Source of the DNA: a virus
Lineage: Duplodnaviria > Caudoviricetes
Reading direction: 5' to 3' (one strand)
DNA: 64,000 nucleotides
IMG/VR virus record: IMGVR_UViG_3300037507_003370
Coordinates: 32,001-96,000 of that record
Made by a program: the position numbers and the translations under genes. Shown in pieces: positions 15,541 to 32,400 of this stretch; within the stretch, counting starts at the first letter, position 1; every line of letters starts with the position of its first letter. The notes beneath the pieces were generated by a model. That model made no database searches. It saw only the letters and a program-made list of their open reading frames with translations, and was not told the origin of the DNA.

Positions 15541-18500
15541 ATGGCAAGAGCTTTCAATCTTACTGCTGAATTAAACCTAAGAGGACCTTCTAATCTTAGG
15601 CCAGTTATTAATGATATTAGAAGACAGCTGGGTAATATCACAGCGAATGTTAATGTTCGTATTGATAGAAATGCACAAAGATCAATTGATACTGCAAATG
15701 CTTCTTTGCAAAGACTAAATACTACTCTAGCGGCAACTGCAGCAAATGCCGTTAGAGCAAATGCTAATATTAATACTTTAGCTGGAACAATTAATAATTT
15801 ACGTAATGCTCTTAATGGAGCTGGCAATGGTTTAAGAGATCTAACAACTAATGTGGGAGCGGCTGCTAGAGATGTTACTGCTGCCGCAAGAGCCACAAGA
15901 GCAGCAACTTCTGAGATGGAAGAATTCGGAAGACAAGCAGGACTAGCTGTTAGAAGATTTGCTGCATTTAGTGTTTCAACAAGTGTTATTTATGGATTAG
16001 TAAATGCTGTTACTAGCGCAACCAGAGAGTTTATAGACTTTGATAGACAATTAGTAAGATTAACACAGATCACTGGAGAATCATATAAAAGTTTAGGAAG
16101 AATAACCGATACTATTACTGATTTATCAACCAATCTTGGAGTTAGTTCATCTAGCTTGATCACAATAGCAGATACTCTTGCTCAAGCAGGACTTAGTGCT
16201 GGTGAAACAGAAAAGGCATTAAGAGCATTGGCTTTAACTGCTTTGGCTCCGTCGTTTGATGATCTTAATGAAACAGTGGAAGGTTCTATTGCTTTGATGA
16301 GACAGTTCGGTATTAGCGCTGGACAACTTCAATCTGCTTTGGGTTCTGTTAATTCTGTGGCCGCAGCATTTGCAGTCGAATCTAGTGATATTATTACTGC
16401 TATTCAGCGTACTGGTGGTGTGTTCGCTAGTGCAAGTAAAGGAGTTAGCGAAGGAACAGATGCTCTTAACGAATTCATTGCTGTATTTACTAGCGTAAGA
16501 GCAACAACTCGTGAAAGTGCCGAGACTATTGCAACAGGATTGAGAACAATTTTTACTAGAATTCAAAGAGAAGGAACCATAGAAGCACTAAAAGAATACG
16601 GAGTTAATCTACAAGATGTTGAGGGTAAATTCGTCGGAGCATACAAAGCTGTTCAATTACTTAGCGAAGGATTAAATAGTCTAGATCCAAGAGATGTAAA
16701 GTTTTCTAGAATAGTAGAAGAACTTGGTGGCTTTAGACAAATTGGTAAGGTTCTACCTCTTATTCAACAGTTTGGAACAGCACAACAGGCACTTGCTGTT
16801 GCTCAAAGAGGATCTTCTAGTTTAACTCTAGATGCTGTTAAGGCCCAACAGTCATTAGCTGTACAATTTACTAAAACCAGAGAAAACTTTGTTGCATTAA
16901 TTAGAGAGATTGGTCAAAGTAATAGTTTTCAGAATTTAGTTAAGCTTGGACTCACACTAACTAATGTTTTAATAAGACTCGCAGATGTTGCTCAGCCGTT
17001 ACTACCAATAATAACAGCGATAGCTGCTGTTAGAGGAGGAAGAGCATTAACCAACTTTATTGGTGGATTTATAGGAGGATTAAGGCCTGGTGTTGGTGGC
17101 GATGCTGGAGGTGGCGGTGGCGGAGGTGGTGCTGGCGGCGGAGGTGGTGGACGAGGAGGAAGAGGCGGCGGTGGTGGAGGAGGTGGCGGTAGAGACGATT
17201 TCCGTTCATCCTTGCAAGATGTAACAACTTCTTTAGATAGTTTACAGGGATCCATTGACCCCTTAACAAATGCTATACAAGCATTATCTACTAATAGTAT
17301 AGCCGGATTAGTCTCACAGATATCCGTATTGAATACTTCAGTAGTAGACCTTAACGCAACAATTGTATCCAGGCCAGGAGGAACAGGTTTTGCTAGAGGC
17401 GGACTTGTCCCTGGACAAGGAAATAGAGATACTGTACCAGCAATGTTAACCCCTGGCGAATTTGTTATTAGAAAAAAGGCTGTTGAGACACTAGGGGCAG
17501 ATCAATTATATGGAATGAATAAATATAGTAATGGTGGTAGTATTAGATCTGGTAATAGGCTCAGAAGACAAAGATTTGCTAAGGGTGGAAAGGCAGCTAA
17601 ATTAGCAAGTATAGATGGTGACTTTAGAGCTGTTGACGGAGATACATTCGACGCAACTGTTACGCCAACAGGAGATCAGTTTACGGCAAGATTTAGAGTT
17701 GCCGAATTTGATACGTATGAAACAAGAGGTAAATCGAGTTTAGTTTCTACGGACAGAGCAAAAAAGATAATGTCTCTAAATCCAAAAGAACCCCCTTTAC
17801 AAGAGTCTTCCGGTAGATATAAAGTTCCAAAAAATTATAGAGTAACTTCTAGAAATGAAACAGCAGCAACAGCAGCAGCAGAAGCAACAAAGCAATTACA
17901 AAGTAAACTTGATCAATTCGTAGGAACAGCAGCAGCCGATAAAACCGTTCCTGGTGGAGGTGGTGTTGGTAGATACTTAGCTAAAACTGGATTTTCTATA
18001 GATGACGAGTACACAACAGGAAGAAAGTGGGACGAAGATGGGAATGAATTAAATATCGGAGGTATTGTCAAAAAATTTGCTCTTGGAGGAAAAGTACGAA
18101 GAAATGTTGGCTATATTGATTATGACGTTATCGCTAATGAAGCAAATAAAAGCATTGTAGAAAAAGGAATGTCAGAGCTTGGAGTTACTGGACCTAGACT
18201 TTATACTGATGCTTTAACAAAATTAGCAGTATCTTCGCGAAAAGCTGGAGATTTAGATAAATTAAAAGCAATTTACGGTGTTGCTGGCAGTGGCAAAACA
18301 ACATTAGCAAGAGGTCAAGGCACAGATAAAGGATCTTTAAGAGAAACAACTCGTTTTCCAATATTAGGTCCCGATGATATTAAAAAGGCAAATGAAATAT
18401 TAATATTAAGTAGTAGTGTTTCTAAGTCTAAAATGGAAGATTTTTTTACTGAAGTTGATAGAGTTTACGCACTTAGTTCTTCAACAAAATCTGAGCAAGA

Positions 18501-21500
18501 AAAAGTAATGGCTCAGAGATTAGGTAGAGATATCAGCGGAATAGGATTAGAAGGAAGAGCACCAGGAACAACAGGATCTGCATCATCAGATACCACTGTT
18601 GGAGAAGCATTATTATCTCAATTAGGTAAAAAATCAGTTGTGTTAGGAAGAGGCGATTCTGGAAATCTAAGAAGAAAACAAGGACAAGAACTTGTAGAAG
18701 TTATAAAAAAGAAATTAGCATTTACTTGGGGAGGTTTCGCACCAACAACAGCTGGTCATGAAAGTATCATGGATGCTGCTGCAGCAATGGGTTTTGCTCC
18801 AGAAGACTTTATTGCTCTTGTTGGAGCTAATGAAGGAATTAAGGCAGGAGATCCTAGTAGTTATAGAACAGCAGTATTTGATCAAGATTTTAGAGTATTG
18901 CTAGCCAAGGCCGGGTTCGGAGCCAAGGGAGCCACCGTTCTGCCAAAACCAAGAGATTTTGAAGTTCCTCAAGGTTTTGATATATCCGAAGGCACAGGAA
19001 GACGCAAAGTAATATTGCCACAAAAAGGAAGTAGAGCATTTGTAGCAGACAAAACTCCAGAACAAATGGCAAAATACAAAGATGCTGGTTATGATGTTAC
19101 TAATTTAGAAAGAACTGGCGGAATTAGCGGTACAATGGTTCGTGACTTAATTATGTCCGGTAAGATCGACCAATTGCAAGACGTTTTATCTCCTGGTGTT
19201 TACGATATTATATCAAAAAATTTACCAATATTACAGAATAGAGCTAATGTTTTACCTGAAATTATTAAACAAGTACAAGCTTCACAACAATCATCGGTTG
19301 ATGCTGTAGAAAAACAAATAACCGACATAGGAATCAAAAGAATTAATCGCAAACAAGCGGAGAGCGATCCGGAGTATGCTGCTAAAATTGCCTTATTAGA
19401 AGAGTTAAGAAAGAAAAAAACTAAATTACAAAGCGCTGGAGCTTTTGAGCCATACAGACTTTTAGATAAATTAGCATCAGATCAACCAGATAAATACGGA
19501 TTAAAGTTTGCTCAGGGAGGATTGATACAAAAATTTATGGCAGGAGAGATGGTTCAAAAACTTCCTGCCCCAGCGAGAAAAATAATTGATGCTCTTGGAG
19601 GGTTAGAACCAGCAGCAAAAATAGGTGGCGTTCGATCAACAGAAATATTAGAGATTTTAAAGAAAAAAGTTGTTAATCAATCACAAAAAACAATACAAGA
19701 TAAAATCTTAGCTCAATATGCAGAAGTTATTGGAGCAGAGCAGCAGGCTATGGATCAAGCAATGAAATTTGGCTTGGTTGGATTATTTGGAGAAACTAAA
19801 GTTGGAACTAATGATCAGGGTAGAACAATTTATGACCCTAAGTGGGACTATAGTAAACAATTTGGCCCTGAAGATATAGGAGGAAGAAACACCACAATAA
19901 TAGCTAGAGGATTAAGATCTCAATATGCAGAAGCTGTATATCAAATGCAAAGAGAGATATTTGGAGTTAATGAAAATTTTGCTAGAAATTTGGAAACAGC
20001 AGGAGGATTTGGAGCACAATCACTAGCAAATATTCAAGGGCCAGCTGTAAAAGCAGGACAGGCTGGCATAGAAGGGGCAATGATAGAGTTAGTTCTAGCA
20101 AGACTCGGAGCCCCATTAAGAGAAAATGCTCCTGCAAATAGACCAATAGATTATCCAGATGGACTAGGAGATGCGGCTAAGTTTTTTGGTATAGATCCGG
20201 ATATGCCAACAGAAGTTAAAAGAACTATTAATGGAGATAGTTTAGCGAGAACAAGAGAAGAAATTGAAAGATATTATAAAGAAGTTTTACAAGTTTTTGC
20301 TACTGGTGGAAAAGTTAAACTTTATCATGGATCTAATACAGGAATAAATGATAGTGTTTTAAATAGTTTTAAAGAAAAGGGAGCTCTTTCTAATATTGCT
20401 AAAGGCTATGGTCAAGGAGAAGGATTCTACTTATATACAGAAAAGAATAAAGCACAACAACAAGCTAATATGAGAGTTAATGGAGGAAGCAACTTTACTG
20501 TTGCTCAAGGCGATAGGTCAGGAAAGCCTATGGTATTAACTTTTAATGAACAATTAAGCCCTAAAGATTATGATTTAGATTATGAATTGCAAAAAGGACT
20601 AGTAGTACAATGGATGCATGATAATTACGATACTCTTAAAGATAAATATGCTCCTACTGAAAATCAAACCGGATTAAAAGGTAAGTTTGATAAAAATCCA
20701 GACGCTGGAATGATGTCGGTTGGAGTAAGTATTCAAGAAGGATCTCAAACATTAAAGTCCGAAGACGGAACAGAGTTTACCTTGCCTGGAGGATCAAGAA
20801 AATCTATTTATGCCGGAAGTGGGGGAGATGTTAGAGAAGGAGCTTTGCTTGGGCAGCTTATGTCTAGAATTCAATCTGGAGACCCCGAATTAGTAAATTC
20901 TTTTGAATCCAAACTTTTTGAAAAACCACTAGGATTAGCATTAAAGTATGTTGGATCATCACCGCTCAAGCCGAGTAATATTGAAACTTTTGCAGACGGT
21001 GGGTCGGTAGAAGGTCAAAAAAAGGAGAAAAACTTTGGAAAAATTGGAATAAAAAATAATGGGTCCGAAATTATAGCAGCATATTTGGGCACAAAAGATC
21101 GTAGTGGTATGGTTAGTGCAAAAAAAATGGCAGATAACTTATATACTGTCGGTTTGTCTAAAGCTAGTGAAGGATATGGTCCTAAGCTTTATGATATTGT
21201 TATGGAAGCGGCCACAGCCAATGGTGGTATGTTAGCTCCTGATAGAAATATTGTTAGCGATGCTGCAAAAGGTGTTTGGTCATATTATTTTAATAATAGA
21301 TCAGATGTAAGAAAAACACCACTAGATAGAAATCAATGGACACAGAACTCTGCCTTAATTGATCCTAAATTATTAGGAGATAAAAATACATGGCCACCAT
21401 ATTCTGATCCTGCTTGGATATTACAAAGTGGATATAGTAAAAATTCAGAGCTATTAAATAGCTCAGATATTGTCAATTTAAATGATGATAAATATAAGTC

Positions 21501-24500
21501 ATTTTTACAAAGTCAACAATTATCATTTTTTGCTCAAGGAGGATCAGTAGAAGATACTGTACCAGCATTATTAACTCCTGGTGAATTTGTAATTAATAAA
21601 AAAGCAGCTCAAAAAATTGGATATGGCAAACTTAAAAAATTAAATCATGCGGATAAAATACAGGGTTATAATAGAGGAGGAATTGTACATAGGTTCGCTG
21701 ATGGCGATGTTGTCCCTCCGTCTGGCCCAGGCTCAGGTGGAGATTCTGATCCAACAATAAGAGACTTAATGGAACGAATTAGACAGTTATCAGAAGTAAT
21801 AGACAGACTTTCTGCTACTGTAAGAGATTCGTCAGATACCAGAGAAAGAACACCCGCAGAAAGACCAGAAAGAAGACCAAGGACTAGAGAAGAAATTTTA
21901 GATAGATATGGATCTAGAGTAATTAATAATAGTTTTAGATCTATGGATAGATTTACTACTAGACTTAATGTACTTACTGGTGTTGTTGGAGTCGCAGCAA
22001 ATTTCTTAGCAGAAACTATAGGAGAAAAGTCTGCAGTTGGTGCGGTTGTACAGAGTTTTGCAAATAGCATCACCACAGCATCTGGAACAGTGTATAGTGC
22101 TGCTGGAGCAATAAAAGGAGCATATGAAGTATTACCAGAAGGTGTTCAAGAACTAGTTAGACAACGTATTGGATCTTTTACTGCTGGTGGTGGATTTGGT
22201 ACAACCGGAGTTCAAGCCGCAGGAGGAGCAGCAGCAGGATTAGCTATAGCCGCTGCGACTATTTATGCTGGAATAGAAGCATTTAAGGCATATAATGATG
22301 CTATTAGAAAACAAACAGAAGAAATAGCCAAAAATAATATGACTCAAGGTTTGGAAGAATTTGATAAAGCTTTAGAATTATATACAAAAAATACAACAGA
22401 TAATGCTTTTGCGCTCAAAGTTGCTGGCGAACAATTAGCCAAAGCAACTAGTGCAGCATTAACAATAGTAAATCTTAATAAAACTAATCCAGACAGAGGA
22501 TATGCTAGTATTATTGGAGAAAATATTGGGACCGTAGGAGGAGGTCTTGTTGGTGGTGCTGTTGGAGGAGCAACTGCTGGTGCAACAATTGGAACAGTAA
22601 TATTTCCTGGTGTTGGTACAGTAATAGGGGCCCTATTAGGAACTGCGATTGGTGCTACTGCGGGCTATGCGTCAGATCAAGCCGTAGCATATTTCTCTGG
22701 TAGAGGCGGACAAGAGCAGATTTCTCAAAGATCAGAAATAGCAAATAGATTTGGGACAGGGGCCTATACTCAATCATTATTTGATTCTAATACACAAACC
22801 AATCTTTCTAGATCCTTAGCTTCTGTTCAGGCAGCAGAAACTGCAGCAACTCTAACTCCAGTTAGACAAAGACAAGATCAATATTTTGAACAATTATTTA
22901 AATCGGGCGTTTCGGAATCTGAAATTCAATCAGCTCCAGAATGGCAACAACAAGCAGAATTAATAGCCAGATCCAATGCTGCTACAGAAGAACAACTTAG
23001 ACTTATAGATGCAGACCTATCTGTTTCTAAAGAACTAAGAGATGCAAAAAAACAAGAAATTATTGCATCCACAGCTAGTGCAGAATTAAGAAAACAAGCA
23101 GAACAAGTTAGAATACAAAGAGAACAAGAAAGAGCAGCAGATGAAAGTAAATCATATATGGTTAGCTTGGAAAGAAGCTTTCAGAATATGGAACAGGCAA
23201 TGGACTCGACCTCTTACTCTATTGATAAATTAAGATCGTCTGCAGAATTATCAGCCGCAGCTTTACAGGGTCAGGCAAAAATTGGGAAAGTTACATTAGA
23301 TGCTATAGATGTAATCCGTAATCCTAATGTTGCCAGTAGACAAGAAAAAACACAAGCATATGGCTTAGCTGGTTCATTAATGGGATCTCAAGGCAAAAGC
23401 GTTACCGGATTACTTGAGTATGGATCAAATATAGAGGGTAGAATTTTATCGTCAATTAATAATGCTTTGGCTGAAAACTCTAAAGGATCATCTGAAAAAA
23501 TAGGAGCAGCTGTTAATAGGTCTGTTGCGAACGAAATAGAAGGATTAGATATTGGAGATTCATTAAAACAAAAATTAGCATCGCAAACTTCTGCCGCAGT
23601 TTCCAAAATGAGGACAGATGGTGATGAAAAGATTGATTTTGATGACTTGGCAGATAAAGTACCAGGATTAGCAAAAGTTGTTGATGCAACTAAAAGAGCC
23701 CAAGAAATGGCTGTTAAAAGACTGGAGTTTTTCCAGCAGTCACTTAATGAATACTCAGAGTCTATAAATAGTCTTGCAGAACTACAATATAATATTGGAG
23801 AAAGATTAAGAAGAGTTAATAACTTAAGAATCAAGTCTGAGGAAGATCTATCAAGAGCACTTGGAAAATCAACCAGTTTTGAAGCTACCAAGTCTAATGT
23901 TAGATCAAATGTTCAGTCTTTAGCAGGAACAACTGACCCAAGACAAATATTCGAAAATTTAGCAAATTTAGAACAGCAAAGACAGCAGCAACAATCAAGA
24001 GTAACTTCTGCTGCTAACAGAGGAGCAGTTCAAGAATATGTAGTAATGACTAATCAATTAAAGACTACTACATTACAAATGAGAGAGAATCACGCTGCTT
24101 TAAAAGAATTAGCTGAAAGTAGCGATGTTGCATCAGCAGCATTGAATAAAATAAATGATATACAACAACAGAATGCTGCTAGAACTAATATCTTAGAAAG
24201 ATATGTAACATCAACACCACAAGAACAAAATCAACTCTCTTCTGCTTTTGAAAGACTACAAAATAATATGGATGGCGCCACAAATAGCATGTGGGATTCT
24301 GTAAATGTTCAGAAAGCATATAGAGACTCACTAACAAGCGGTTCTACCCAAGCAGAAGCAATGAATAAGGCCCAAGAGGCTGCTGCACAAGATCGTAAAG
24401 AGACCTTAGATGCATTTAATATGATAGCTCCATTACTAGGAGATCAACAAAATGAATTAAAGGCTAATGTATTAGAAAGTATGATGAGAGAATCTGGTGT

Positions 24501-27500
24501 TCAAATGTCTCCATTATTTGAAAAGGCTCTTCAAGGATTAAGAAATCCAGAAAGAGATCCTCAAATGGATGCTGCTATTAAAGAATATCAAGAAGCCAAT
24601 AGGCTACAACAAGAAGCCAATGTATATCTTGCTATGTTAGATGGAAAAGTAGCACAAGACATGGCAACAAAATCAGACGAATTATTAAGAACATCATTAG
24701 CAACAGTAACTCAAAAATTCGAATTAGCAGAAAGTAGTGATGTAAAAAATAAAATTAATAGTATAGACAGTAGACTTAGAGATGGAATTAAAGTATTTCC
24801 TCAAGGTAATATTGGTGGTGGTTCTTCTGATGATGTAACCACAGCAGCTAAAGGTGGATACATAACATATAAGGCTGTTGGAGGCTCAATATTTAAGCCC
24901 AAAGGTACCGATACTGTGCCTGCCATGTTAACTCCTGGAGAATTTGTTGTTAACAGATCAGCAACTCAAAAGCATGGTTCATTATTAGAGTCTATTAATA
25001 GTGGACAATTTGCCAAAGGAGGAAAAGTAACATATCGAGCAGCTGGTGGTATTGTTGGAGACGTAAAATCACCGCATCTTAAAGATTTTAGCGATCCTTA
25101 TGAGGACTTGAGAGGACAACCATTAACAGGATCTTTCTTCTCTAAGCTAGGATCTAGTGATGATGTTGCTAAAAATTTATTGGATTTAGAACAAGGCTTT
25201 GGAGCTTTACAAGGATACCAAGCATCAGCCTATCCTACTTTTAATAACTCTGGTTCAACAGCAGACGGTCTTGATAAACAGTCAACAACAAAATGGATTA
25301 AAGATAATAGATCTCCAACCGGAGGTAAACTAGGTTGGTTTCCTGATCTAACTGTTTTTCACGGATCCGCAGGCAATTTAGGCTATTTACCAATATTCTG
25401 GGGTGCAAATGCTATTGCTGGTGCAACTGGAGCCACCGTTACAGCCAATCGTAAATCATTACAAAAACAGATGGTTACCAAGGATCTATTAGATTTAGGA
25501 AATCCAGATATTTTTGATGTTTTAAATGACAGATCAGCAAGCGGAAAAGGACCTAGAGCAAGAACAACTCTTTTATCAGAAGACCAAGCTAAATTACAGA
25601 AAGAAAAACTAACATCGATTTTTGATCAGGTTGACAAAGGATTGTCTGATGTTAAACAAAAAGAAATTAATTTATCAAAAGACGGCGGCGCCATAAATTC
25701 TGCAGCAAATATTGGTCAATATGGCGCAAGTTTTAGAAAATATGGACTCATATTAGGATCTTCAATACCAGATAAATATATGGGTCTTAGTTTTAATAAA
25801 CCAAACACTTCTATAGACCAATCTTTAGTAGGAGGAAATTTATCTGAGCCATCTTTTAGCGTTACTAAATATGGCTATGCGACATCTTCTACATCTCCAT
25901 TGGCAAATTCAACTAATACAGCAGTAATATCTGGGGGTATTCAAACAATACCAACAGAAGATCAGCTTAAGTCTTTTACCGATAAATATAAATCAGTTAT
26001 ACAAGTAGAAGAATGGAGAGCTTATATAGATAAACTAGATAAAGATAAGTCAAGAAGCACTACTCCTATAGAAGAACAAACTAACGCTAGAAATAAAGCC
26101 TTAAGAAAATTAATTAATAATCAAATAACACATATCCAACTCAAAGAAGAAGATTTGAGCGATGAATTTAAAAAGATGGCTGGCATAGATGGAGATTTTG
26201 AAAAATTAGATGTATATTCAGAAGCTTTTAAAGGTAGATGGCCTAATACAGAGTCTATGAAAACTAATTTTGGAATTAAAGATGAAGACCTTAAAAAATA
26301 TTGGCAAACTGGAGCAAATGATAAATTATTTACATTACAATATAGCAAAAAATTAAGAAATCTTTTAACCGGAGCAGAATTTGATCAACAGTATACTAAA
26401 GGATTGCCTTGGTCTTGGGGAGAAAATAGCATATTCACAGCAGAAACTATGGAAGCAGTTAAAAAAGAAATGGCATTATCTTCAGGGGCCTCTTCTTTTA
26501 AAGTCATTCCTAAAGTATTTAGTAAATCATATACAGACACAAGAGATCCTAATCAATATACAGCAAAAATCAAATTCCCATATGACTCATTATCATCTCT
26601 TTTATTTGATAAAGATAGTATGGACTATACCGCTCAATCACTTACTGCATTAGTTCCATGGTGGGAAAATCAACAAAAAATAGATCCTTTTAGTATTAAT
26701 CCATTTGTCGGCTTGGCTCAGCCTAACGCTGTGATTCCAGCGTATCAGGACGAAAAAAGTATGGAAAAATTTGTTAAATATTGGGTTGAAAAAGAAATTT
26801 TCAACAAACCATCCATTTATCTGCCTCTTTCGCCTATAAAACTACCTACAGCACTAGATAAATTTGTTGGAAGTGTTAATAATACAACACAATTCGATAG
26901 AGAAGTAACAGATAGTGAAGGAGGTAAGAATTTTGAACAAGGTAATTATGTTCCAGAGAATGCGGAAGTTGCTGATATATCTAATGCTTTATTTAAAAAA
27001 TATGAATATATATACGCAAAAAGATCTCAAGATACAAGCGCTAATAATGAATCAAAATTAAGGGAAAACTTATTACAATATAATTTAGCATCTAGTCTTG
27101 GTAAATCACTCTTAAAGAAAGATGGATTAAAATTACCATTATGGGATCCTGATCAAGCTTTTGTAACAGCAGATCCAGTTTGGCAAGCAGTTAAAGACAC
27201 GGCTCCAGACCTTGGAGTAGATGGATATAGGAACGCTGCCGAATGGAAAAGAAGCTATATATTAGCTGCCGCCGGAACAATAGCAGATCCGCCAGATAAG
27301 ATCAAAGCAGACGAGGACATTTTTCCTGCTCAAAATTATATAGCTTGGATTAGAGCAAAAACCGTAGAAGCCTATTCTGCAAATGAAGAGAGTCAGGATA
27401 AATATAAACAATCAGGAGGAGTAAATATATCTTCTTTGGGTAAGTTAGTTTCTGCTTGGAGATTTATGGAAGAGTCTAGAACAGCTGGAGGAAGCGCAAC

Positions 27501-29487
27501 ATCATATAAGGACGATAATAGTCCTAAAGATAATCCTTTTTCTAAACGCCTATATAATAGATATGAAAAAGATCTAAAGAAATTTACTAAAAAAGTTACT
27601 TTACAAGCACCAGACAGAAACAAAAAAGGAGATAAGCCATGGGAAAGAGACTATGATGACACTGGAGCTGGATTAGAAAGAACATATTGGGACAATGCTA
27701 AATTAGCTTCTGATGCCGGATTTGTTCAAACTGTTTTATCAGAACAAGAAGGTAAAATAGATGATAGAAGAGCAAGAACTCTTTTAAGTTATCGTAGAGG
27801 ATATAAAAAAGATTCGGTACAACCAGAAGAACAAGCAATTTTAGATGCTTATGGTACAATGGTAGACAAAAAAGGAAGAGAAGACATAGCATTTGATCTT
27901 ACAACAGGAGGAGCTAACGAAGCTAAAGCGCCAACAACTTTTACTGGTCCTGGCGGCGTTTATGAACAAATGATGGATCAATATCAAGTTATGCAAATTG
28001 GCAGACGTTCTATGCTAAGAGCATTAATAGAAGATAGAGCAAGATCCAATTTTGATGCTCCAAATTTTGAAAATTCTGGATACGAAGAGTGGTGGGAAGA
28101 TATGTCAAATGATCTCGAATATATTGAAGAATATTTATCTGCTAGAGATTATATGTTATTGAAAGCAACCTCTTCTGCAGAATTGTATAATCCTGCTGTT
28201 GGAGCAGCAGTACAAGCGAAAATAAGTCAAGTGTCTGGAGGTTTACCAGACTTTTTATTAAATGCTATGCCAGGACTAACAGGAGGAGCAGACTATAATT
28301 CGTTATATGGAACAGTCGTAGACAACATGGCTCTTTCGGCGCAAGAGTTTGTAGATTCTATAACTGGCCCAAGACCAGTTGATCCGAGTAACCCAACACT
28401 TGGAACACTAACAGATGATCAAGCTCAGAGAGTTAATGAGCTTAGAAAATTAATAGCTACAGAATTTGGCCAAACAAGAGATATAAAACCAAGCGTTTAT
28501 ACTCAAGAAATTTTTGATATGTATAAAACATACATTGAAGACAATTATAATAATGCTAATAAAGCATATAGCAAATTAAATGAAGGAACTATGTTGCAAC
28601 CTCCCAATGAGATTTGGGATCGTAGCGATTTAGTTGTTCTAGCAGACAAAGCTTCGGCTAATAGTCCAAATACTTTTAGAGCATTTTATTTAGCTTCTGT
28701 TGGTGCTGGTAAAAACTTAGCAGAACTTAAAAAAGACGAGATGCAGGGATTTGGAGGACTATTACCTAGTGCTCAAAAGGGTGCCGAAGCATTAGGAATG
28801 TCCTCTGCCGAACCAGATAAAAAGAGCCAACCTCAAACCAGAGCTTCTGGAGGATTGATATATAATCAAAGTTACAAGCCGAATAATATTGATTGGTCAG
28901 CAAAAGGCACAGACACTGTTCCTGCAATGTTAACACCAGGAGAATTTGTAATTAACAAAGATTCTAGTCAAAGATACATGCCTATTTTAGAAGCTATTAA
29001 TCAAGGAAACTATACTCAGGGCAATATTGTTCAGTATGCTAGCAGAGGAGGAACAATAAGACCAATATACAGAAACATGGGTGGTATTGTAGGAGGAAAC
29101 CAACAGCAAGGTGTATTAAATTCATATATTGGATTGGATGAAAAATCTATAGCAGCTTTAAGGGACTTTACGGCCAAATTTGATCAATTTGCTAAACAGC
29201 TTTTGGAACTTAGACTACCAACTATTGGAATTGATAGCACTAGCTTGGGAGCATTAACTACATTTAGTAATAGGTTTGATGAATTTAGCAAGAGTTTGCT
29301 CAAATTGAATATACCGCCGGTGATTACGATAAACGCAAAACATGATGTTAACGTCAATATTAATGGAGCTAGTGTGTTTAACAATCTCAATGCCTATGTT
29401 AGCGATATAGTAAAGAGCGAAATTGATAAAGCATTTAGTCAATTAGCTAAGGTTTCCGAAAATGCTATTAATTTGTATGGGTCATAA
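15541..29487 (+). CDS. Giant tape measure protein with embedded enzyme-like domains (4648 aa)
   Basis: N-terminal TP901-type TMP core (FDRQLVRLTQITG...LAQAG...SAFAVES.DI...). Long Ala/Gln-rich helical regions, glycine-zipper hydrophobic segments and four DTVPA(M/L)LTPGEFV motifs. Canonical position after tube and chaperones. Confidence 0.9.
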   Translation: MARAFNLTAELNLRGPSNLRPVINDIRRQLGNITANVNVRIDRNAQRSIDTANASLQRLNTTLAATAANAVRANANINTLAGTINNLRNALNGAGNGLRDLTTNVGAAARDVTAAARATRAATSEMEEFGRQAGLAVRRFAAFSVSTSVIYGLVNAVTSATREFIDFDRQLVRLTQITGESYKSLGRITDTITDLSTNLGVSSSSLITIADTLAQAGLSAGETEKALRALALTALAPSFDDLNETVEGSIALMRQFGISAGQLQSALGSVNSVAAAFAVESSDIITAIQRTGGVFASASKGVSEGTDALNEFIAVFTSVRATTRESAETIATGLRTIFTRIQREGTIEALKEYGVNLQDVEGKFVGAYKAVQLLSEGLNSLDPRDVKFSRIVEELGGFRQIGKVLPLIQQFGTAQQALAVAQRGSSSLTLDAVKAQQSLAVQFTKTRENFVALIREIGQSNSFQNLVKLGLTLTNVLIRLADVAQPLLPIITAIAAVRGGRALTNFIGGFIGGLRPGVGGDAGGGGGGGGAGGGGGGRGGRGGGGGGGGGRDDFRSSLQDVTTSLDSLQGSIDPLTNAIQALSTNSIAGLVSQISVLNTSVVDLNATIVSRPGGTGFARGGLVPGQGNRDTVPAMLTPGEFVIRKKAVETLGADQLYGMNKYSNGGSIRSGNRLRRQRFAKGGKAAKLASIDGDFRAVDGDTFDATVTPTGDQFTARFRVAEFDTYETRGKSSLVSTDRAKKIMSLNPKEPPLQESSGRYKVPKNYRVTSRNETAATAAAEATKQLQSKLDQFVGTAAADKTVPGGGGVGRYLAKTGFSIDDEYTTGRKWDEDGNELNIGGIVKKFALGGKVRRNVGYIDYDVIANEANKSIVEKGMSELGVTGPRLYTDALTKLAVSSRKAGDLDKLKAIYGVAGSGKTTLARGQGTDKGSLRETTRFPILGPDDIKKANEILILSSSVSKSKMEDFFTEVDRVYALSSSTKSEQEKVMAQRLGRDISGIGLEGRAPGTTGSASSDTTVGEALLSQLGKKSVVLGRGDSGNLRRKQGQELVEVIKKKLAFTWGGFAPTTAGHESIMDAAAAMGFAPEDFIALVGANEGIKAGDPSSYRTAVFDQDFRVLLAKAGFGAKGATVLPKPRDFEVPQGFDISEGTGRRKVILPQKGSRAFVADKTPEQMAKYKDAGYDVTNLERTGGISGTMVRDLIMSGKIDQLQDVLSPGVYDIISKNLPILQNRANVLPEIIKQVQASQQSSVDAVEKQITDIGIKRINRKQAESDPEYAAKIALLEELRKKKTKLQSAGAFEPYRLLDKLASDQPDKYGLKFAQGGLIQKFMAGEMVQKLPAPARKIIDALGGLEPAAKIGGVRSTEILEILKKKVVNQSQKTIQDKILAQYAEVIGAEQQAMDQAMKFGLVGLFGETKVGTNDQGRTIYDPKWDYSKQFGPEDIGGRNTTIIARGLRSQYAEAVYQMQREIFGVNENFARNLETAGGFGAQSLANIQGPAVKAGQAGIEGAMIELVLARLGAPLRENAPANRPIDYPDGLGDAAKFFGIDPDMPTEVKRTINGDSLARTREEIERYYKEVLQVFATGGKVKLYHGSNTGINDSVLNSFKEKGALSNIAKGYGQGEGFYLYTEKNKAQQQANMRVNGGSNFTVAQGDRSGKPMVLTFNEQLSPKDYDLDYELQKGLVVQWMHDNYDTLKDKYAPTENQTGLKGKFDKNPDAGMMSVGVSIQEGSQTLKSEDGTEFTLPGGSRKSIYAGSGGDVREGALLGQLMSRIQSGDPELVNSFESKLFEKPLGLALKYVGSSPLKPSNIETFADGGSVEGQKKEKNFGKIGIKNNGSEIIAAYLGTKDRSGMVSAKKMADNLYTVGLSKASEGYGPKLYDIVMEAATANGGMLAPDRNIVSDAAKGVWSYYFNNRSDVRKTPLDRNQWTQNSALIDPKLLGDKNTWPPYSDPAWILQSGYSKNSELLNSSDIVNLNDDKYKSFLQSQQLSFFAQGGSVEDTVPALLTPGEFVINKKAAQKIGYGKLKKLNHADKIQGYNRGGIVHRFADGDVVPPSGPGSGGDSDPTIRDLMERIRQLSEVIDRLSATVRDSSDTRERTPAERPERRPRTREEILDRYGSRVINNSFRSMDRFTTRLNVLTGVVGVAANFLAETIGEKSAVGAVVQSFANSITTASGTVYSAAGAIKGAYEVLPEGVQELVRQRIGSFTAGGGFGTTGVQAAGGAAAGLAIAAATIYAGIEAFKAYNDAIRKQTEEIAKNNMTQGLEEFDKALELYTKNTTDNAFALKVAGEQLAKATSAALTIVNLNKTNPDRGYASIIGENIGTVGGGLVGGAVGGATAGATIGTVIFPGVGTVIGALLGTAIGATAGYASDQAVAYFSGRGGQEQISQRSEIANRFGTGAYTQSLFDSNTQTNLSRSLASVQAAETAATLTPVRQRQDQYFEQLFKSGVSESEIQSAPEWQQQAELIARSNAATEEQLRLIDADLSVSKELRDAKKQEIIASTASAELRKQAEQVRIQREQERAADESKSYMVSLERSFQNMEQAMDSTSYSIDKLRSSAELSAAALQGQAKIGKVTLDAIDVIRNPNVASRQEKTQAYGLAGSLMGSQGKSVTGLLEYGSNIEGRILSSINNALAENSKGSSEKIGAAVNRSVANEIEGLDIGDSLKQKLASQTSAAVSKMRTDGDEKIDFDDLADKVPGLAKVVDATKRAQEMAVKRLEFFQQSLNEYSESINSLAELQYNIGERLRRVNNLRIKSEEDLSRALGKSTSFEATKSNVRSNVQSLAGTTDPRQIFENLANLEQQRQQQQSRVTSAANRGAVQEYVVMTNQLKTTTLQMRENHAALKELAESSDVASAALNKINDIQQQNAARTNILERYVTSTPQEQNQLSSAFERLQNNMDGATNSMWDSVNVQKAYRDSLTSGSTQAEAMNKAQEAAAQDRKETLDAFNMIAPLLGDQQNELKANVLESMMRESGVQMSPLFEKALQGLRNPERDPQMDAAIKEYQEANRLQQEANVYLAMLDGKVAQDMATKSDELLRTSLATVTQKFELAESSDVKNKINSIDSRLRDGIKVFPQGNIGGGSSDDVTTAAKGGYITYKAVGGSIFKPKGTDTVPAMLTPGEFVVNRSATQKHGSLLESINSGQFAKGGKVTYRAAGGIVGDVKSPHLKDFSDPYEDLRGQPLTGSFFSKLGSSDDVAKNLLDLEQGFGALQGYQASAYPTFNNSGSTADGLDKQSTTKWIKDNRSPTGGKLGWFPDLTVFHGSAGNLGYLPIFWGANAIAGATGATVTANRKSLQKQMVTKDLLDLGNPDIFDVLNDRSASGKGPRARTTLLSEDQAKLQKEKLTSIFDQVDKGLSDVKQKEINLSKDGGAINSAANIGQYGASFRKYGLILGSSIPDKYMGLSFNKPNTSIDQSLVGGNLSEPSFSVTKYGYATSSTSPLANSTNTAVISGGIQTIPTEDQLKSFTDKYKSVIQVEEWRAYIDKLDKDKSRSTTPIEEQTNARNKALRKLINNQITHIQLKEEDLSDEFKKMAGIDGDFEKLDVYSEAFKGRWPNTESMKTNFGIKDEDLKKYWQTGANDKLFTLQYSKKLRNLLTGAEFDQQYTKGLPWSWGENSIFTAETMEAVKKEMALSSGASSFKVIPKVFSKSYTDTRDPNQYTAKIKFPYDSLSSLLFDKDSMDYTAQSLTALVPWWENQQKIDPFSINPFVGLAQPNAVIPAYQDEKSMEKFVKYWVEKEIFNKPSIYLPLSPIKLPTALDKFVGSVNNTTQFDREVTDSEGGKNFEQGNYVPENAEVADISNALFKKYEYIYAKRSQDTSANNESKLRENLLQYNLASSLGKSLLKKDGLKLPLWDPDQAFVTADPVWQAVKDTAPDLGVDGYRNAAEWKRSYILAAAGTIADPPDKIKADEDIFPAQNYIAWIRAKTVEAYSANEESQDKYKQSGGVNISSLGKLVSAWRFMEESRTAGGSATSYKDDNSPKDNPFSKRLYNRYEKDLKKFTKKVTLQAPDRNKKGDKPWERDYDDTGAGLERTYWDNAKLASDAGFVQTVLSEQEGKIDDRRARTLLSYRRGYKKDSVQPEEQAILDAYGTMVDKKGREDIAFDLTTGGANEAKAPTTFTGPGGVYEQMMDQYQVMQIGRRSMLRALIEDRARSNFDAPNFENSGYEEWWEDMSNDLEYIEEYLSARDYMLLKATSSAELYNPAVGAAVQAKISQVSGGLPDFLLNAMPGLTGGADYNSLYGTVVDNMALSAQEFVDSITGPRPVDPSNPTLGTLTDDQAQRVNELRKLIATEFGQTRDIKPSVYTQEIFDMYKTYIEDNYNNANKAYSKLNEGTMLQPPNEIWDRSDLVVLADKASANSPNTFRAFYLASVGAGKNLAELKKDEMQGFGGLLPSAQKGAEALGMSSAEPDKKSQPQTRASGGLIYNQSYKPNNIDWSAKGTDTVPAMLTPGEFVINKDSSQRYMPILEAINQGNYTQGNIVQYASRGGTIRPIYRNMGGIVGGNQQQGVLNSYIGLDEKSIAALRDFTAKFDQFAKQLLELRLPTIGIDSTSLGALTTFSNRFDEFSKSLLKLNIPPVITINAKHDVNVNINGASVFNNLNAYVSDIVKSEIDKAFSQLAKVSENAINLYGS
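17089..17190 (+). repeat. Poly-glycine hinge in TMP
   Basis: GVGGDAGGGGGGGGAGGGGGGRGGRGGGGGGGGG, encoded with mixed GGN codons. Confidence 0.9.
17590..18048 (+). other. Staphylococcal nuclease (thermonuclease)-like domain within TMP
   Basis: VDGDT (17632-17646), R-x4-D-x2-E (RVAEFDTYE, 17695-17721) and GRYLA (17968-17982). Confidence 0.7.
18091..18700 (+). other. P-loop NTPase/kinase-like domain within TMP
   Basis: AIYGVAGSGKTT Walker A (18277-18303) after a hydrophobic strand. Confidence 0.7.
18700..19260 (+). other. HIGH-superfamily nucleotidyltransferase (cytidylyltransferase/NMNAT-like) domain within TMP
   Basis: AFTWGGFAPTTAGH (18718-18759; G-x-F-x-P-x-T/H-x-G-H) and ISGTMVRDLI..G......LSPGVYDII (from 19123), matching the C-terminal ISST.IR motif. 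Confidence 0.75.
20040..20280 (+). other. PD-(D/E)xK nuclease-like domain within TMP
   Basis: Helix with E (GAMIE, E at 20086), PIDY (D at 20149) and TEVKRT (EVK at 20212-20220). Confidence 0.5.
20311..20985 (+). other. ADP-ribosyltransferase-like (H-Y class) domain within TMP
   Basis: KLYHGS (LYHGS at 20320-20334) and YGQGEGFYLYT..KA (GEGFYLYT at 20416-20439). Confidence 0.6.
21004..21525 (+). other. GNAT acetyltransferase-like domain within TMP
   Basis: LYTVGLSKASEGYGPKLYD (motif A-like GYG, 21172-21195) then LAPDR.IVSDAAKGVW. Confidence 0.5.
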
Positions 29488-29492
29488 TAACT

Positions 29493-32400
29493 ATGTATAT
29501 AAAATATTATGATAATGTAGGAGAATTAGGTTCTGTAGCATTAACTAGCAATGTATTGACAACGATCAATCTTCCTAATGGAGAATTTGTTTCTATAGGA
29601 ACAGACTATCGCCCATTTTTTAATTATGTACAACCTGGCGATTTGTTTTATGTTAAAGCATCTCAAACATCAGCATTTACTATATGTCTTGGTAAATATA
29701 ATATAGATGGATTTAATAATAGATCTATAGAAGTATTGCACATAATATCTTCTTATGGTACTTTAAACCCATCTGTAAATACGGAGATTACTATAGAAAA
29801 CAGTAATTCTCTATCAAATAGAATAGCCAGTAATGCTGTTTTTCTTAAAAATATAAATAATTTTGTTCCAGAACTTTTAACATCAGACTATGTAATTTCA
29901 TTAAGCGGTAATATGAATGTTACGCTACCGCCAGCAACTATAAACAATATAAACTTAAAATATGGATTTTTACTAGCAAACAAAAATAATACCACAGATA
30001 ATCTAGTTATATCAGCATCTGGATCAAATAACATATTAACTAAATCTGGTACCTCTAATAGTGTTAGCGTTACTGGTGTTGGAAGTTATGTAGAACTTAT
30101 AGCTGGCTCTGGTGGAACTTGGTATAAACTATTTAGTAATGAAGAAATGTCTGGAGGTGGTTCTAGTCTTGGTATGCCGGTAAAGTCATTACAATACAAC
30201 AATAATAATTCTCAAGCTGGAGCAAAGGCTTATTGGGATGATACATTTAAAACTTTATACTTTGGTGAAACAAATAATGTTACTAATGCCGATGTTGTAA
30301 TAAGCGCTACACAAAATAAGACATCTGGCATATATCCATTTTTACTAAAGCTTAATAATGGAAATTATTTTGCTCTCACAAAAGAAGGAAAAGTAGGGAT
30401 AAACACACCTAGTCTACCTTTGTATGAATCTTCTCCTAATTTTCATGTTGTGGGAAGATGTGCTGTATTCGAAGGTATATGCGGGGCTGGTGGCGTTGCA
30501 CTAACGCTATATAATAATCCAGAAGTAGTTCCGCAATCAGGTAGTTTGGCTGGTACAGTAAATCTATCAGCAAGAAATAGCAATAGAAATGTAGTAAACT
30601 TTGCGCAAGTACAATCAAAAATTCTAAATCCAATCAAAGGACAAACACAAGGACAATTTTTAGTCAATGTGGATGTTTCTGGAGTACCTAAGAATTTACT
30701 AAAACTAGACAATAGTAATGTTGTACTAGGTTCGAATGAAGTAGATTCATCTGCTAATTCTATAGTGCTAGGCAAAAATAATAATACTGATAATCTCAAA
30801 AATTCTGCTATAGTCGGAAACGATAATAGCATTGCAAATGCAAATAATGTATTTGTATTAGGTTCTGGAAATAGTATAGATTTTATAAAAAATAGTGTGA
30901 AATTTGTTCTTTCTGAACCAAATGTTGGAAGTTTCAGCGGTTTGGATTGGGCAGATCTTGATGGTATGGTTTCTGGCGATATTGTTGAAGTAACTAATAA
31001 TGGTTTAAATAATGGCTACTACATAGCTTCAGATAGTATTTGGACTCCATTAGATAATTCCACAGCAATAGCCTATCTTGGAACTTCTAATCTATTAGTT
31101 GGCACAGACAATACTCTCTCTGGAAATAATCTCGTTGTATTTGGAAACAACACTAATGTTAGTGGTAACAATTTAAGCGTATTTGGTAGCTTTAATAATA
31201 TAAGAACCCAAAATATACAAAACATAATTCTGCCAAATAATACATTATTTAATAATGTTACTGTTATTGGAGAGTATAACGACATTGCTTCAAGCGGACT
31301 AATAATTCTAGGAAATCAAAATTCTGCTAGTGGCGTAAACGGAATGCTTCTTGTTGGATCAGAAAACATTTCTACAAGCGGATCTATTAATAGCATCATT
31401 ATTGGAGATAACAATAATTTAATTACTATTTCCGGTATCTCTATAGGAAATAATAATAGTGGAACTCTAATATCTTCAAGTCTTTTTGGTATAAATAACT
31501 CTATTGCACTATCTAATTCTTATCTTTTAGGAAATAATAATAGAGCAACTGGAGTATTAAATAATATTATAGGCTCATCAAACTCTATTGTTTTAAGCTC
31601 TGGTAATATTGTAGGAACTAATAATGTAGCACAAGGTAATTCCATAAATGCATTAGGAAACAATATTAATATATCAGGAGCAAATAATATTTCTGTTGGA
31701 AGCAATGTTAGAGCAACAGGTAATAATAATATTTTAATTGGAAATAATAATACTAATATAGATTTAATAAATAATACAACAATATTATCTAATAATTTTA
31801 ATCATTCTGGTTCAATATCTTCATCTTTTATTTTATCAAACAATGTTTCTATATCTAGTGGAGTTTATACAGATCTAAACATTTTAGGAACCAATAATAC
31901 AGTTAATTCAGGAATAGCAAATGTATTAATTTTAGGAGATAACAATAATTTAAACAATGTTTTTGATCTTACTTGGCCTTCTTTAGCATTTGTCTCTAAT
32001 AATCCTGGCACACAATTTACCAGAATCAATTCTACGCTTCAAGAATTAGAATATTATAAAAATAATGATATTATAGATATTTCTGGAGAAACTCAGTCAG
32101 CATCTGGAATTATTAAACTTGTTTACTTCAATCAAGATACCTCGACATTAACCATAGAGACAGTTTCTGCTATACCGGGAATATCAACAGCAAATATTAA
32201 ATCTAGAACACAGCAAGAAAAATTGATAGAATTTGGGTCCAAACCAATACAAATTATTGGAAATAAAAATACCGCAATTGGAATATCCGGGATCAATCTT
32301 GGATCATCTAACTATTCCAGTGGAAATAGAATTTTCATTCATGGTAATGATAACGAAGTTTTTGGAAATGATATCATTAGCATTGGAAATGGGATATATG

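Follow-up and report, generated by a model that had tools for sequence, protein, structure and literature searches.

What is a pair of enzyme domains doing inside the tail tape measure protein (TMP) of a tailed phage, and what might the pair make? The question is raised by a 64,000-nucleotide stretch of a Caudoviricetes genome (IMG/VR record IMGVR_UViG_3300037507_003370, positions 32,001 to 96,000; the whole stretch is called the window below), where a single very long open reading frame (ORF) contains a cassette of 477 amino acids (aa) with a P-loop kinase-fold domain followed by a nucleotidyltransferase (NTase) domain of the HIGH class. The ORF encodes a TMP, as follows from its match to PF10145 (PhageMin_Tail; TMP aa 190-384, E 1e-24; 84.8 bits, where 33.2 is the cut-off), its great length and its place in a tail gene block; tail-fibre-like genes lie upstream. 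The results allow us to conclude that the cassette represents a new enzyme family restricted to TMPs, which belongs to the HIGH NTase superfamily by its fold and motifs and to no curated family by score. As to its product, the best-supported reading, which we put forward tentatively, is that the cassette is ejected with the TMP and that its coupled kinase and adenylyltransferase convert nicotinamide riboside (NR) via nicotinamide mononucleotide (NMN) into NAD+.

A preliminary description of the locus, made from the sequence alone, had placed a Walker A motif, the NTase motif FTWGGFAPTTAGH and a C-terminal ISGTMVRDLI in one cassette with no FAxGG linker between them, and had taken them for a kinase-NTase fusion within the TMP. 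Both observations were confirmed. The three motifs share one reading frame of the TMP ORF, with 148 aa from Walker A to FTWGGFAPTTAGH, and no further linker motif occurs between the FALGG at aa 846 and the FAQGG at aa 1323, the sole internal FxxGG-like string being the NTase motif itself; nor does any other frame hold an ORF of at least 80 aa over the cassette region. From an alignment of 33 sequences, AlphaFold2 produced a confident two-domain model of the whole cassette (pLDDT, the predicted local distance difference test score, 88.6; pTM, the predicted template modelling score, 0.80), and the N-terminal 210 residues folded alone reached a pLDDT of 90.8 and a pTM of 0.87. The set of kinase and NTase motifs is far beyond chance, since the block is conserved in over 140 TMPs found in metagenomes of lakes and other sources, its motif residues are invariant or nearly so, the predicted fold is confident and the host ORF is a TMP. 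The stretch is also no accident of assembly, since it recurs in many lake-water metagenome DNA runs from 2020 to 2024; all sequencing runs found to contain it were of lake-water DNA, with no RNA run listed among them.

The distribution of the cassette clearly showed its confinement to TMPs. A word-indexed search limited to the cassette returned 80 homologs, which are proteins of 2,921-7,724 aa, mostly with PF10145; BLAST alignments showed residues 1-477 to be conserved end to end as a single block, at TMP positions from aa 272 to about 2,140, and with the matches of the HMMER search below the positions extend to about aa 2,960. When 1.84 billion representative proteins were searched exhaustively with HMMER, 98 matched; all full-length ones were giant TMPs and the short ones fragments, so that, at E 0.001 or better, this set contained no free-standing cellular or viral homolog. 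A word-indexed search from the NTase profile likewise gave TMP fragments only. There was no match by tblastn in 50,697 GenBank phage records, no relative in 185,579 scanned GTDB species genomes, and no two-domain relative in the BFVD viral structure library, which yielded single-domain cytidyltransferase-like and NMN adenylyltransferase (NMNAT) matches. Among the homologs the two domains always occur together. Furthermore, the N-terminal 616 aa of the TMP retrieved more than 745 giant TMP homologs, and among the 120 closest the cassette is present in 61 and absent from 59. Given this patchy presence and its variable position, the cassette is accessory cargo and not part of the tail-building core.

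Across 46 aligned homologs, with identities of 22-71%, the residues K74, P223, H228, S351, R356 and R389 (cassette numbering) are invariant, and D15, D17, G68, G73, D101, R151, R161, G219, T225, G227, R264, R273, Y334 and T353 are conserved in at least 90%. To judge from this alignment, the catalytic residues are intact and the enzyme is apparently active.

The NTase half carries both hallmarks of the HIGH superfamily, (H/T)xGH and the C-terminal ISxTxxR, in conserved form, and its fold agrees with them (Z up to 13.7, TM-score 0.71). When cassette residues 212-390 were compared by VIA-align with 48,161 chains, the M. jannaschii NMNAT (1f9a) came first (Z 13.7, root-mean-square deviation (rmsd) 2.7, 155 of its 164 residues aligned), followed by NadM (Z 13.1) and phosphopantetheine adenylyltransferase (PPAT; Z 13.0), while NadD and other adenylyltransferases of NMN or of nicotinic acid mononucleotide (NaMNAT) took ranks 4-14 (Z 12.8-11.2); 12 of the top 14 entries are NMN/NaMN adenylyltransferases. 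NadR appeared at Z 9.9-10.0, aligned only via its NMNAT domain. Foldseek with the same half placed PPAT first in the PDB (E 4.8e-6, TM 0.71), then NadM and the archaeal NMNAT, and among Swiss-Prot models it placed CitC at the top of a list filled by PPAT. The caution given in the preliminary description, that the HIGH fold does not fix the substrate, is thus borne out, since PPAT heads the Foldseek list and nearly equals the best NMNAT by Z.

The sequence profiles are less evenly divided. Single-sequence searches of Pfam, PHROGs, NCBIfam and the PDB with the cassette gave sub-threshold matches only. With Pfam models, PF01467 matched 18 of 33 relatives at E 1 or better (best E 2.3e-6), PF16581 (HIGH_NTase1-associated) matched 31 of 33 locally (best E 1.4e-7) and PF05636 only 4 of 33. 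A profile of 46 aligned NTase domain sequences, searched against all PDB sequences, found MJ0951 (3gmi) at E 4e-7, locally over 41 aa around ISGTxxR, and Bas30_86 (9x6f) at E 8e-7 along the entire domain (profile positions 8-160 aligned to residues 9-158 of the chain), followed by the M. jannaschii NMNAT 1f9a (E 3e-4), a NaMNAT (E 4e-3) and the best PPAT (E 0.01). Bas30_86 is therefore the best whole-domain match with a solved structure; the invariant P298 loop of the cassette aligned with its NMN-binding loop (P84-Y93 in the numbering of the paper), and Y334 and G338 with its Y...G. In an NCBIfam scan of the 46 domains, the NadD, NMNAT and NadM models gave more and better matches (best E 7.6e-4) than PPAT, whose equivalog model TIGR01510 (cut-off 103 bits) matched 11 of 46 members below the cut-off, at best with E 0.018; the NadR models TIGR01526 and PRK08099 each matched one of 46, at E 0.02-0.05 and far below the cut-off. 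The comparison with NadR, NMNAT and PPAT proposed earlier thus has a divided outcome, in that structure ties NMNAT with PPAT and the profiles favour NMNAT. Taken together, the NTase leans to the NMN/NaMN adenylyltransferases.

The kinase half falls into no sequence family. Its model has five strands, a LID of helix-loop form that bears R151 and R161, and an Asp that directly follows strand 2; this D101 would be placed like the catalytic Asp of zeta-type and polynucleotide kinases, and the predicted secondary structure is that expected of an active small-molecule or polynucleotide kinase. The best structural match is the zeta toxin ng_zeta1 (Z 8.0-8.3 over 152-156 aa, pre-P-loop helices included), the only one above the generic P-loop background, all others having a Z of at most 6.2. 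Foldseek gave zeta toxin a probability of 0.95-0.99 (TM 0.45-0.49) and the 'Zeta toxin' clusters of the AlphaFold database 0.94-0.97, and ESM features gave a weak zeta-like lead (0.82). Lesser matches include AvrRxo1 (Z 5.9), dephospho-CoA and pantothenate kinases (Z 4.4-5.8) and polynucleotide kinases (Z 4.4-5.9). The zeta toxin family PF06414 was matched neither in the 33 members at E 1 or better nor in the genomes of five relatives at E 0.01 or better. A PDB profile search with the kinase half found P-loop strings only, Foldseek against the PDB gave no match at E 0.001 or better, and a shape search of the ESM Atlas returned only generic P-loop ATPases (TM at most 0.47). The ribosylnicotinamide kinase (RNK) chains of NadR were not among the structural matches of the kinase domain, which is no evidence of a different fold.

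How could such a pair work? The strict coupling of both domains suggests a two-step reaction, phosphorylation followed by adenylylation or the reverse, and the most likely chemistry would be that of a coupled kinase and adenylyltransferase producing a dinucleotide cofactor. In the NAD+ reading, the kinase would make NMN from NR and the NTase would join NMN with ATP to give NAD+, and the cassette would then match NadR and phage NARP3 in function, with a reversed domain order and a non-homologous kinase. TMPs leave the tail first at infection, so that the enzyme would enter the host together with the DNA or just ahead of it; by analogy with the TMP-borne RNA polymerase of phage P23-45 and with the zeta-like kinases of injected polyvalent proteins, on which the ejected-enzyme reading is built, delivery into the host at infection is probable. 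As few TMP copies are present per virion and NADases yield neither NR nor NMN, the activity would be expected to be local and early, in small (freshwater) cells, or else late, when the TMP is made in bulk, and it would not on its own refill a depleted pool. The more specific proposal, that the TMP delivers a working NAD+-synthesising enzyme before phage gene expression, either as a pre-loaded counter to NAD+-depleting immunity or as a local NAD+ source for co-delivered effectors that use NAD+, is in our view doubtful.

A number of observations weigh against NAD+ synthesis by an ejected cassette. On the side of the NTase, structural models alone do not separate NMNAT from PPAT; the curated cut-offs of the NCBIfam models for NMNAT, NadR, NadD and PPAT are all missed; with PF01467, the copy in the window has a score of only 11.9 bits (E 0.27; gathering threshold 21 bits); and the profile match to Bas30_86, at about 30 bits, rests largely on two shared motifs, which is why we speak of a lean and not of an assignment. 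On the side of the kinase, Pfam and PDB profile scans revealed no sequence match to RNK, AAA_28 or NadR, and human Nrk1 reaches only Z 4.2. Moreover, 3 of the 46 homologs, which form one lineage (P0129, P0134 and P0137), have a degenerate Walker A (NRK; GAAANRKSS) with the glycine before the lysine replaced. The kinase half may be inactive or altered in this lineage and the kinase step dispensable there; its NTase motifs are intact, so that the NTase is the more strictly constrained half. As to physiology, the products of NADase defences are nicotinamide and ADP-ribose, and neither is a substrate for an NR kinase or an NMNAT; a virion, in addition, carries few TMP copies. Bulk resupply of NAD+ from these copies is implausible: they would hardly replenish, in a matter of minutes, the millimolar pool of a large cell. 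The reading also presupposes delivery into the cytoplasm and refolding there.

For the genomic context, searches were made in related IMG/VR records, eight of which are rated complete. PnuC was not found in five complete relatives, and Nampt was not found in six of the eight. The other two represent one lineage (L027 and L028, records of about 210 and 160 kb), with a 504-aa Nampt/NadV-type phosphoribosyltransferase (PRK09198, E 4e-168) at 1345-2859 on the minus strand of L027; the 210-kb record, the one of the two that was searched for it, had no separate HIGH NTase, and this lineage counts in favour of the NAD+ reading. Against the virion-borne NAD+ supply suggested in the preliminary description stand the few TMP copies, which make bulk resupply quantitatively doubtful, the lack of PnuC in the five complete relatives and the restriction of Nampt to one lineage. 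Another relative does have a separate HIGH NTase, which lies in a heptose-nucleotide cluster and is unrelated to the cassette. Such a cluster was seen in a 175-kb IMG/VR relative (L023, 31-1932, plus strand), where epimerase/reductase-like, GHMP heptose-7-phosphate-kinase-like and small heptose-1-phosphate adenylyltransferase-like genes suggest modification of DNA or of surface glycans. The further idea that the cassette feeds an ADP-ribosyltransferase (ART)-like cassette downstream has no general basis, since just 13 of 61 kinase-NTase TMPs (27 of 148 by iterated hidden Markov model (HMM) searches) also contain the ART-like cassette, which is found in TMPs without the kinase-NTase cassette as well.

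Other products have to be weighed on the same evidence. The structural tie with PPAT leaves room for a CoA-type module, where a PPAT-like NTase would be paired with a kinase acting on the 3'-OH of dephospho-CoA (or on pantetheine), as in eukaryotic CoA synthase, for example supplying the GNAT-like cassette that occurs in 52 of 148 kinase-NTase TMPs. PPAT leads Foldseek in the PDB, fills the Swiss-Prot list and shares the TxGH motif, and dephospho-CoA and pantothenate kinases are among the matches of the kinase domain. We nevertheless consider this module unlikely: the PPAT profile signal (E 0.01 or worse) is four orders of magnitude weaker than that of the Bas30_86 NMNAT, which likewise has T in TxGH; the TIGR01510 matches are weak; the NTase is about 25 aa longer than PPAT, with an extra loop that aligns to the NMN-binding loop region of Bas30_86; and the objection of few TMP copies holds here too. 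The shape of the kinase, in turn, would suit an offensive effector, in which a zeta- or AvrRxo1-like kinase acts on a UDP-sugar, NAD+ or a defence signalling nucleotide and the NTase makes or remodels its substrate, so as to poison host metabolism or blunt signalling at entry rather than to supply a cofactor. Zeta toxin is indeed the sole kinase match above background, AvrRxo1 is an NAD 3'-kinase, the neighbouring cassettes are effector-like (nuclease-like and ART-like), and zeta-like kinases have been described from polyvalent proteins that phages inject (PMC5512222). This effector is improbable all the same, as a Z of about 8 is, by the alignment tool's own guidance, common between unrelated models, PF06414 (Zeta_toxin) has no member here, no known pathway couples such a kinase with a HIGH NTase, and it is the NTase that is more strictly conserved.

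A third possibility is a pair directed at macromolecules, with a polynucleotide-kinase-like end kinase and a TmcAL- or CitC-like adenylate-forming ligase whose target would be tRNA, the ends of RNA or DNA, or the prosthetic group of a protein. Here the low number of TMP copies would be no obstacle and would even favour catalysis on specific targets. PF16581 in 31 of 33 members, MJ0951 as the best PDB profile match, CitC as the top Swiss-Prot model and polynucleotide kinases among the kinase-domain matches all point in this direction, as does TmcAL, which aligned over 205-208 residues including its C-terminal helices (VIA-align Z 10.2, rmsd 4.2-4.4); the helical hairpin of the cassette is aligned there with the helices at the TmcAL C-terminus, at no better than these values. 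However, MJ0951 and PF16581 match only locally, covering the 41-aa ISGTxxR region common to the whole superfamily; NMNAT superposes more closely, with an rmsd of 2.7 as compared with 4.2-4.4; and the first motif reads GxFxPxTxGH as in NMNAT and PPAT, not EYNPxHxGH as in MJ0951. The first motif of TmcAL is likewise EYNPxHxGH. We therefore regard the macromolecule-directed pair as quite improbable. Finally, the cassette might not act as an ejected enzyme at all, and might either work only in the producing cell during TMP synthesis or be a structural, length-setting filler with relic enzyme motifs. Three copies of a 53-kDa domain would not fit in folded form into a tail tube; one half of the close relatives manage without the cassette, and its delivery and refolding are steps that we infer. 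Against a relic speak the catalytic residues, invariant across identities of 22-71%, and the confinement to TMPs, with no free-standing homolog in 1.84 billion proteins, is hard to explain unless incorporation into the virion matters. The RNA polymerase fused to the P23-45 TMP shows that such delivery can work (PMC10770324), and we hold a cassette that is never ejected, or is mere filler, to be very improbable.

The features of the TMP ORF and its surroundings are collected in Table 1.

Table 1. Coordinates of the TMP gene, the kinase-NTase cassette with its motifs, and neighbouring elements in the window.
Feature	Window position	Strand	TMP residues	Remarks
TMP gene with cassette	15541-29487	+		Single ORF, 13,947 nt, 4,648 aa
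Kinase + HIGH NTase cassette	18076-19506	+	846-1322	477 aa; opens with FALGG linker, ends ...PDKYGLK just before next linker
P-loop kinase-fold domain	18076-18705	+	846-1055	N-terminal
D15-x-D17	18118-18126	+	860-862	In GYIDxDV strand before P-loop; invariant in 33 sequences, at least 90% in 46
Walker A GVAGSGKTT	18277-18303	+	913-921	Lysine is K74 of cassette (aa 919, nt 18295-18297)
D101	18376-18378	+	946	Candidate catalytic base just after strand 2; at least 90% conserved
LID-like segment with R151, R161	18526-18558	+	996, 1006 (the two Arg)	Helix-loop between strands 4 and 5; both at least 90% conserved
HIGH-class NTase domain	18691-19251	+	1051-1237	Structural and profile matches
First nucleotide-binding motif FTWGGFAPTTAGH	18721-18759	+	1061-1073	(T/H)xGH signature; H228 is aa 1073
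Second motif ISGTMVRDLI	19123-19152	+	1195-1204	ISxTxxR signature; S351, T353, R356
C-terminal helical hairpin	19222-19485	+	1228-1315	Helices at cassette residues 383-418 and 432-469; LQNRxxxLP and DPEY motifs conserved
FAQGG linker	19507-19521	+	1323	Opens next cassette
Glycine run	17107-17193		523-551	29 residues, almost all Gly with a few Ala and Arg, between TMP core and first module
SNase-like cassette	17575-18075		679-845	Directly upstream; begins DGDTFDA...
PD...EVK cassette	19507-20295		1323-1585	Directly downstream
ART-like, then GNAT-like cassette	20296-21528		1586-1996	ART-like part: weak DUF3990 match, E 0.056
DTVPA(M/L)LTPGEFV modules	17428, 21562, 24919, 28921		633, 2008, 3127, 4461	Four copies
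Four further giant ORFs	29493-59624	+		2,468, 2,477, 1,461 and 2,957 aa; after the TMP

The TMP is partitioned by the DTVPA modules, and FxxGG linkers flank every cassette, the kinase-NTase cassette always ending in ...P-x-KYGL before the next linker; these modules and linkers could be processing or docking sites. The upstream neighbour has the look of a staphylococcal nuclease (SNase) fold; among its relatives, one TMP bears the JGI name of a thermonuclease-family endonuclease, and PF00565 is present in another. By iterated HMM it occurs in 32 of 148 kinase-NTase TMPs and in 1 of 61 without that cassette. The PD...EVK pattern of the downstream neighbour suggests a PD-(D/E)xK nuclease, although Pfam gave no match; its family is found in 117 of 148 TMPs with the kinase-NTase cassette against 38 of 61 without. 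The GNAT-like cassette is accessory as well. Every accessory cassette of this TMP is more frequent in TMPs with the kinase-NTase cassette, and no specific partner can be claimed, since relatedness and protein length confound the enrichment. When the flanking regions were clustered by single linkage, all of them joined into one chain, which gave no information. As most of the upstream structural ORFs have no PHROG match, the phage, which is uncultured, belongs to a poorly charted lake-water lineage.

The NAD+ reconstitution pathways NARP1, 2 and 3 have so far been known only from genes expressed after entry, and the enzymes carried by TMPs have so far comprised cell-wall hydrolase motifs and one RNA polymerase. 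A kinase-adenylyltransferase confined to TMPs would extend virion-delivered cargo to cofactor or nucleotide metabolism. If the NAD+ reading is true, the logic of NadR would have arisen again, by convergence, within a structural protein and with a kinase unrelated to that of NadR. Even if the substrate is not NAD+, the cassette offers an experimentally tractable enzyme family with no free-standing relatives and a clean test case for how a folded enzyme passes the tail tube and regains its fold in the host.

The closest functional counterpart is Bas30_86 (9X6F/9X6H), the NadR-like NMNAT-RNK enzyme of phage NARP3, which was shown experimentally to convert NR to NAD+ and overcome Sir2-HerA (PMC13464706). 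Like NadR and Bas30_86, the latter also phage-encoded, the cassette unites a HIGH adenylyltransferase and a P-loop kinase in one polypeptide, and it shares with Bas30_86 the T-x-G-H variant and the IS(G/A)TxxR motif. It differs from them in its order, the kinase being N-terminal where the RNK of NadR follows the NMNAT, in its kinase, which comes nearest to zeta toxin in fold and is no RNK homolog, and in the missing PnuC partner of the five complete relatives; furthermore, it is embedded in a virion TMP, whereas Bas30_86 is a free early protein. By sequence, then, the cassette is not a member of the NadR family, given its reversed order, its non-homologous kinase and the model cut-offs that it does not reach. 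Of the NadR-like module suggested at the outset, the NMNAT lean of the NTase stands (Bas30_86 at E 8e-7, 1f9a at E 3e-4 and Z 13.7), and the kinship of the kinase does not.

Among the single-domain enzymes, the archaeal and NadM-type NMNATs (1f9a, 2qjo) and NadD are the best structural matches of the NTase (rmsd 2.7-3.2) and share both signature motifs. Identity to them is only 14-18%, with a sub-threshold sequence signal, and the cassette adds family residues of its own (R264, R273, P298 and Y334) and the C-terminal helical hairpin. PPAT (CoaD) has the same fold (Foldseek TM 0.63-0.71) and the TxGH motif; it is shorter, has no fused kinase in bacteria and gives a weaker profile signal. For the kinase, the zeta/PezT/AvrRxo1 toxin kinases are the nearest in fold, down to the shared pre-P-loop helices, and the cassette departs from the zeta toxins in having no PF06414 match, no antitoxin and a shorter LID spacing.

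As a mode of delivery, the proposed one has its precedent in gp96 of the Thermus phage P23-45, a TMP of 5,002 aa; its N-terminal part is the virion RNA polymerase by which the pre-early genes are transcribed (PMC10770324). There, a cytoplasm-acting enzyme is carried in a giant TMP, although the enzymes differ. Injected polyvalent proteins, in which zeta-like kinases have been described, resemble this TMP in combining several unrelated enzyme domains in one polypeptide, which for this TMP would be virion-delivered, and the survey that defined them mentions neither TMPs nor HIGH NTases (PMC5512222). In the present case, kinase, NTase, SNase-like and ART-like domains all lie in one polypeptide encoded in a virion gene block. 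In contrast to both P23-45 gp96 and the polyvalent proteins, however, this TMP is built as an array of swappable, linker-bounded cassettes of metabolic or effector type.

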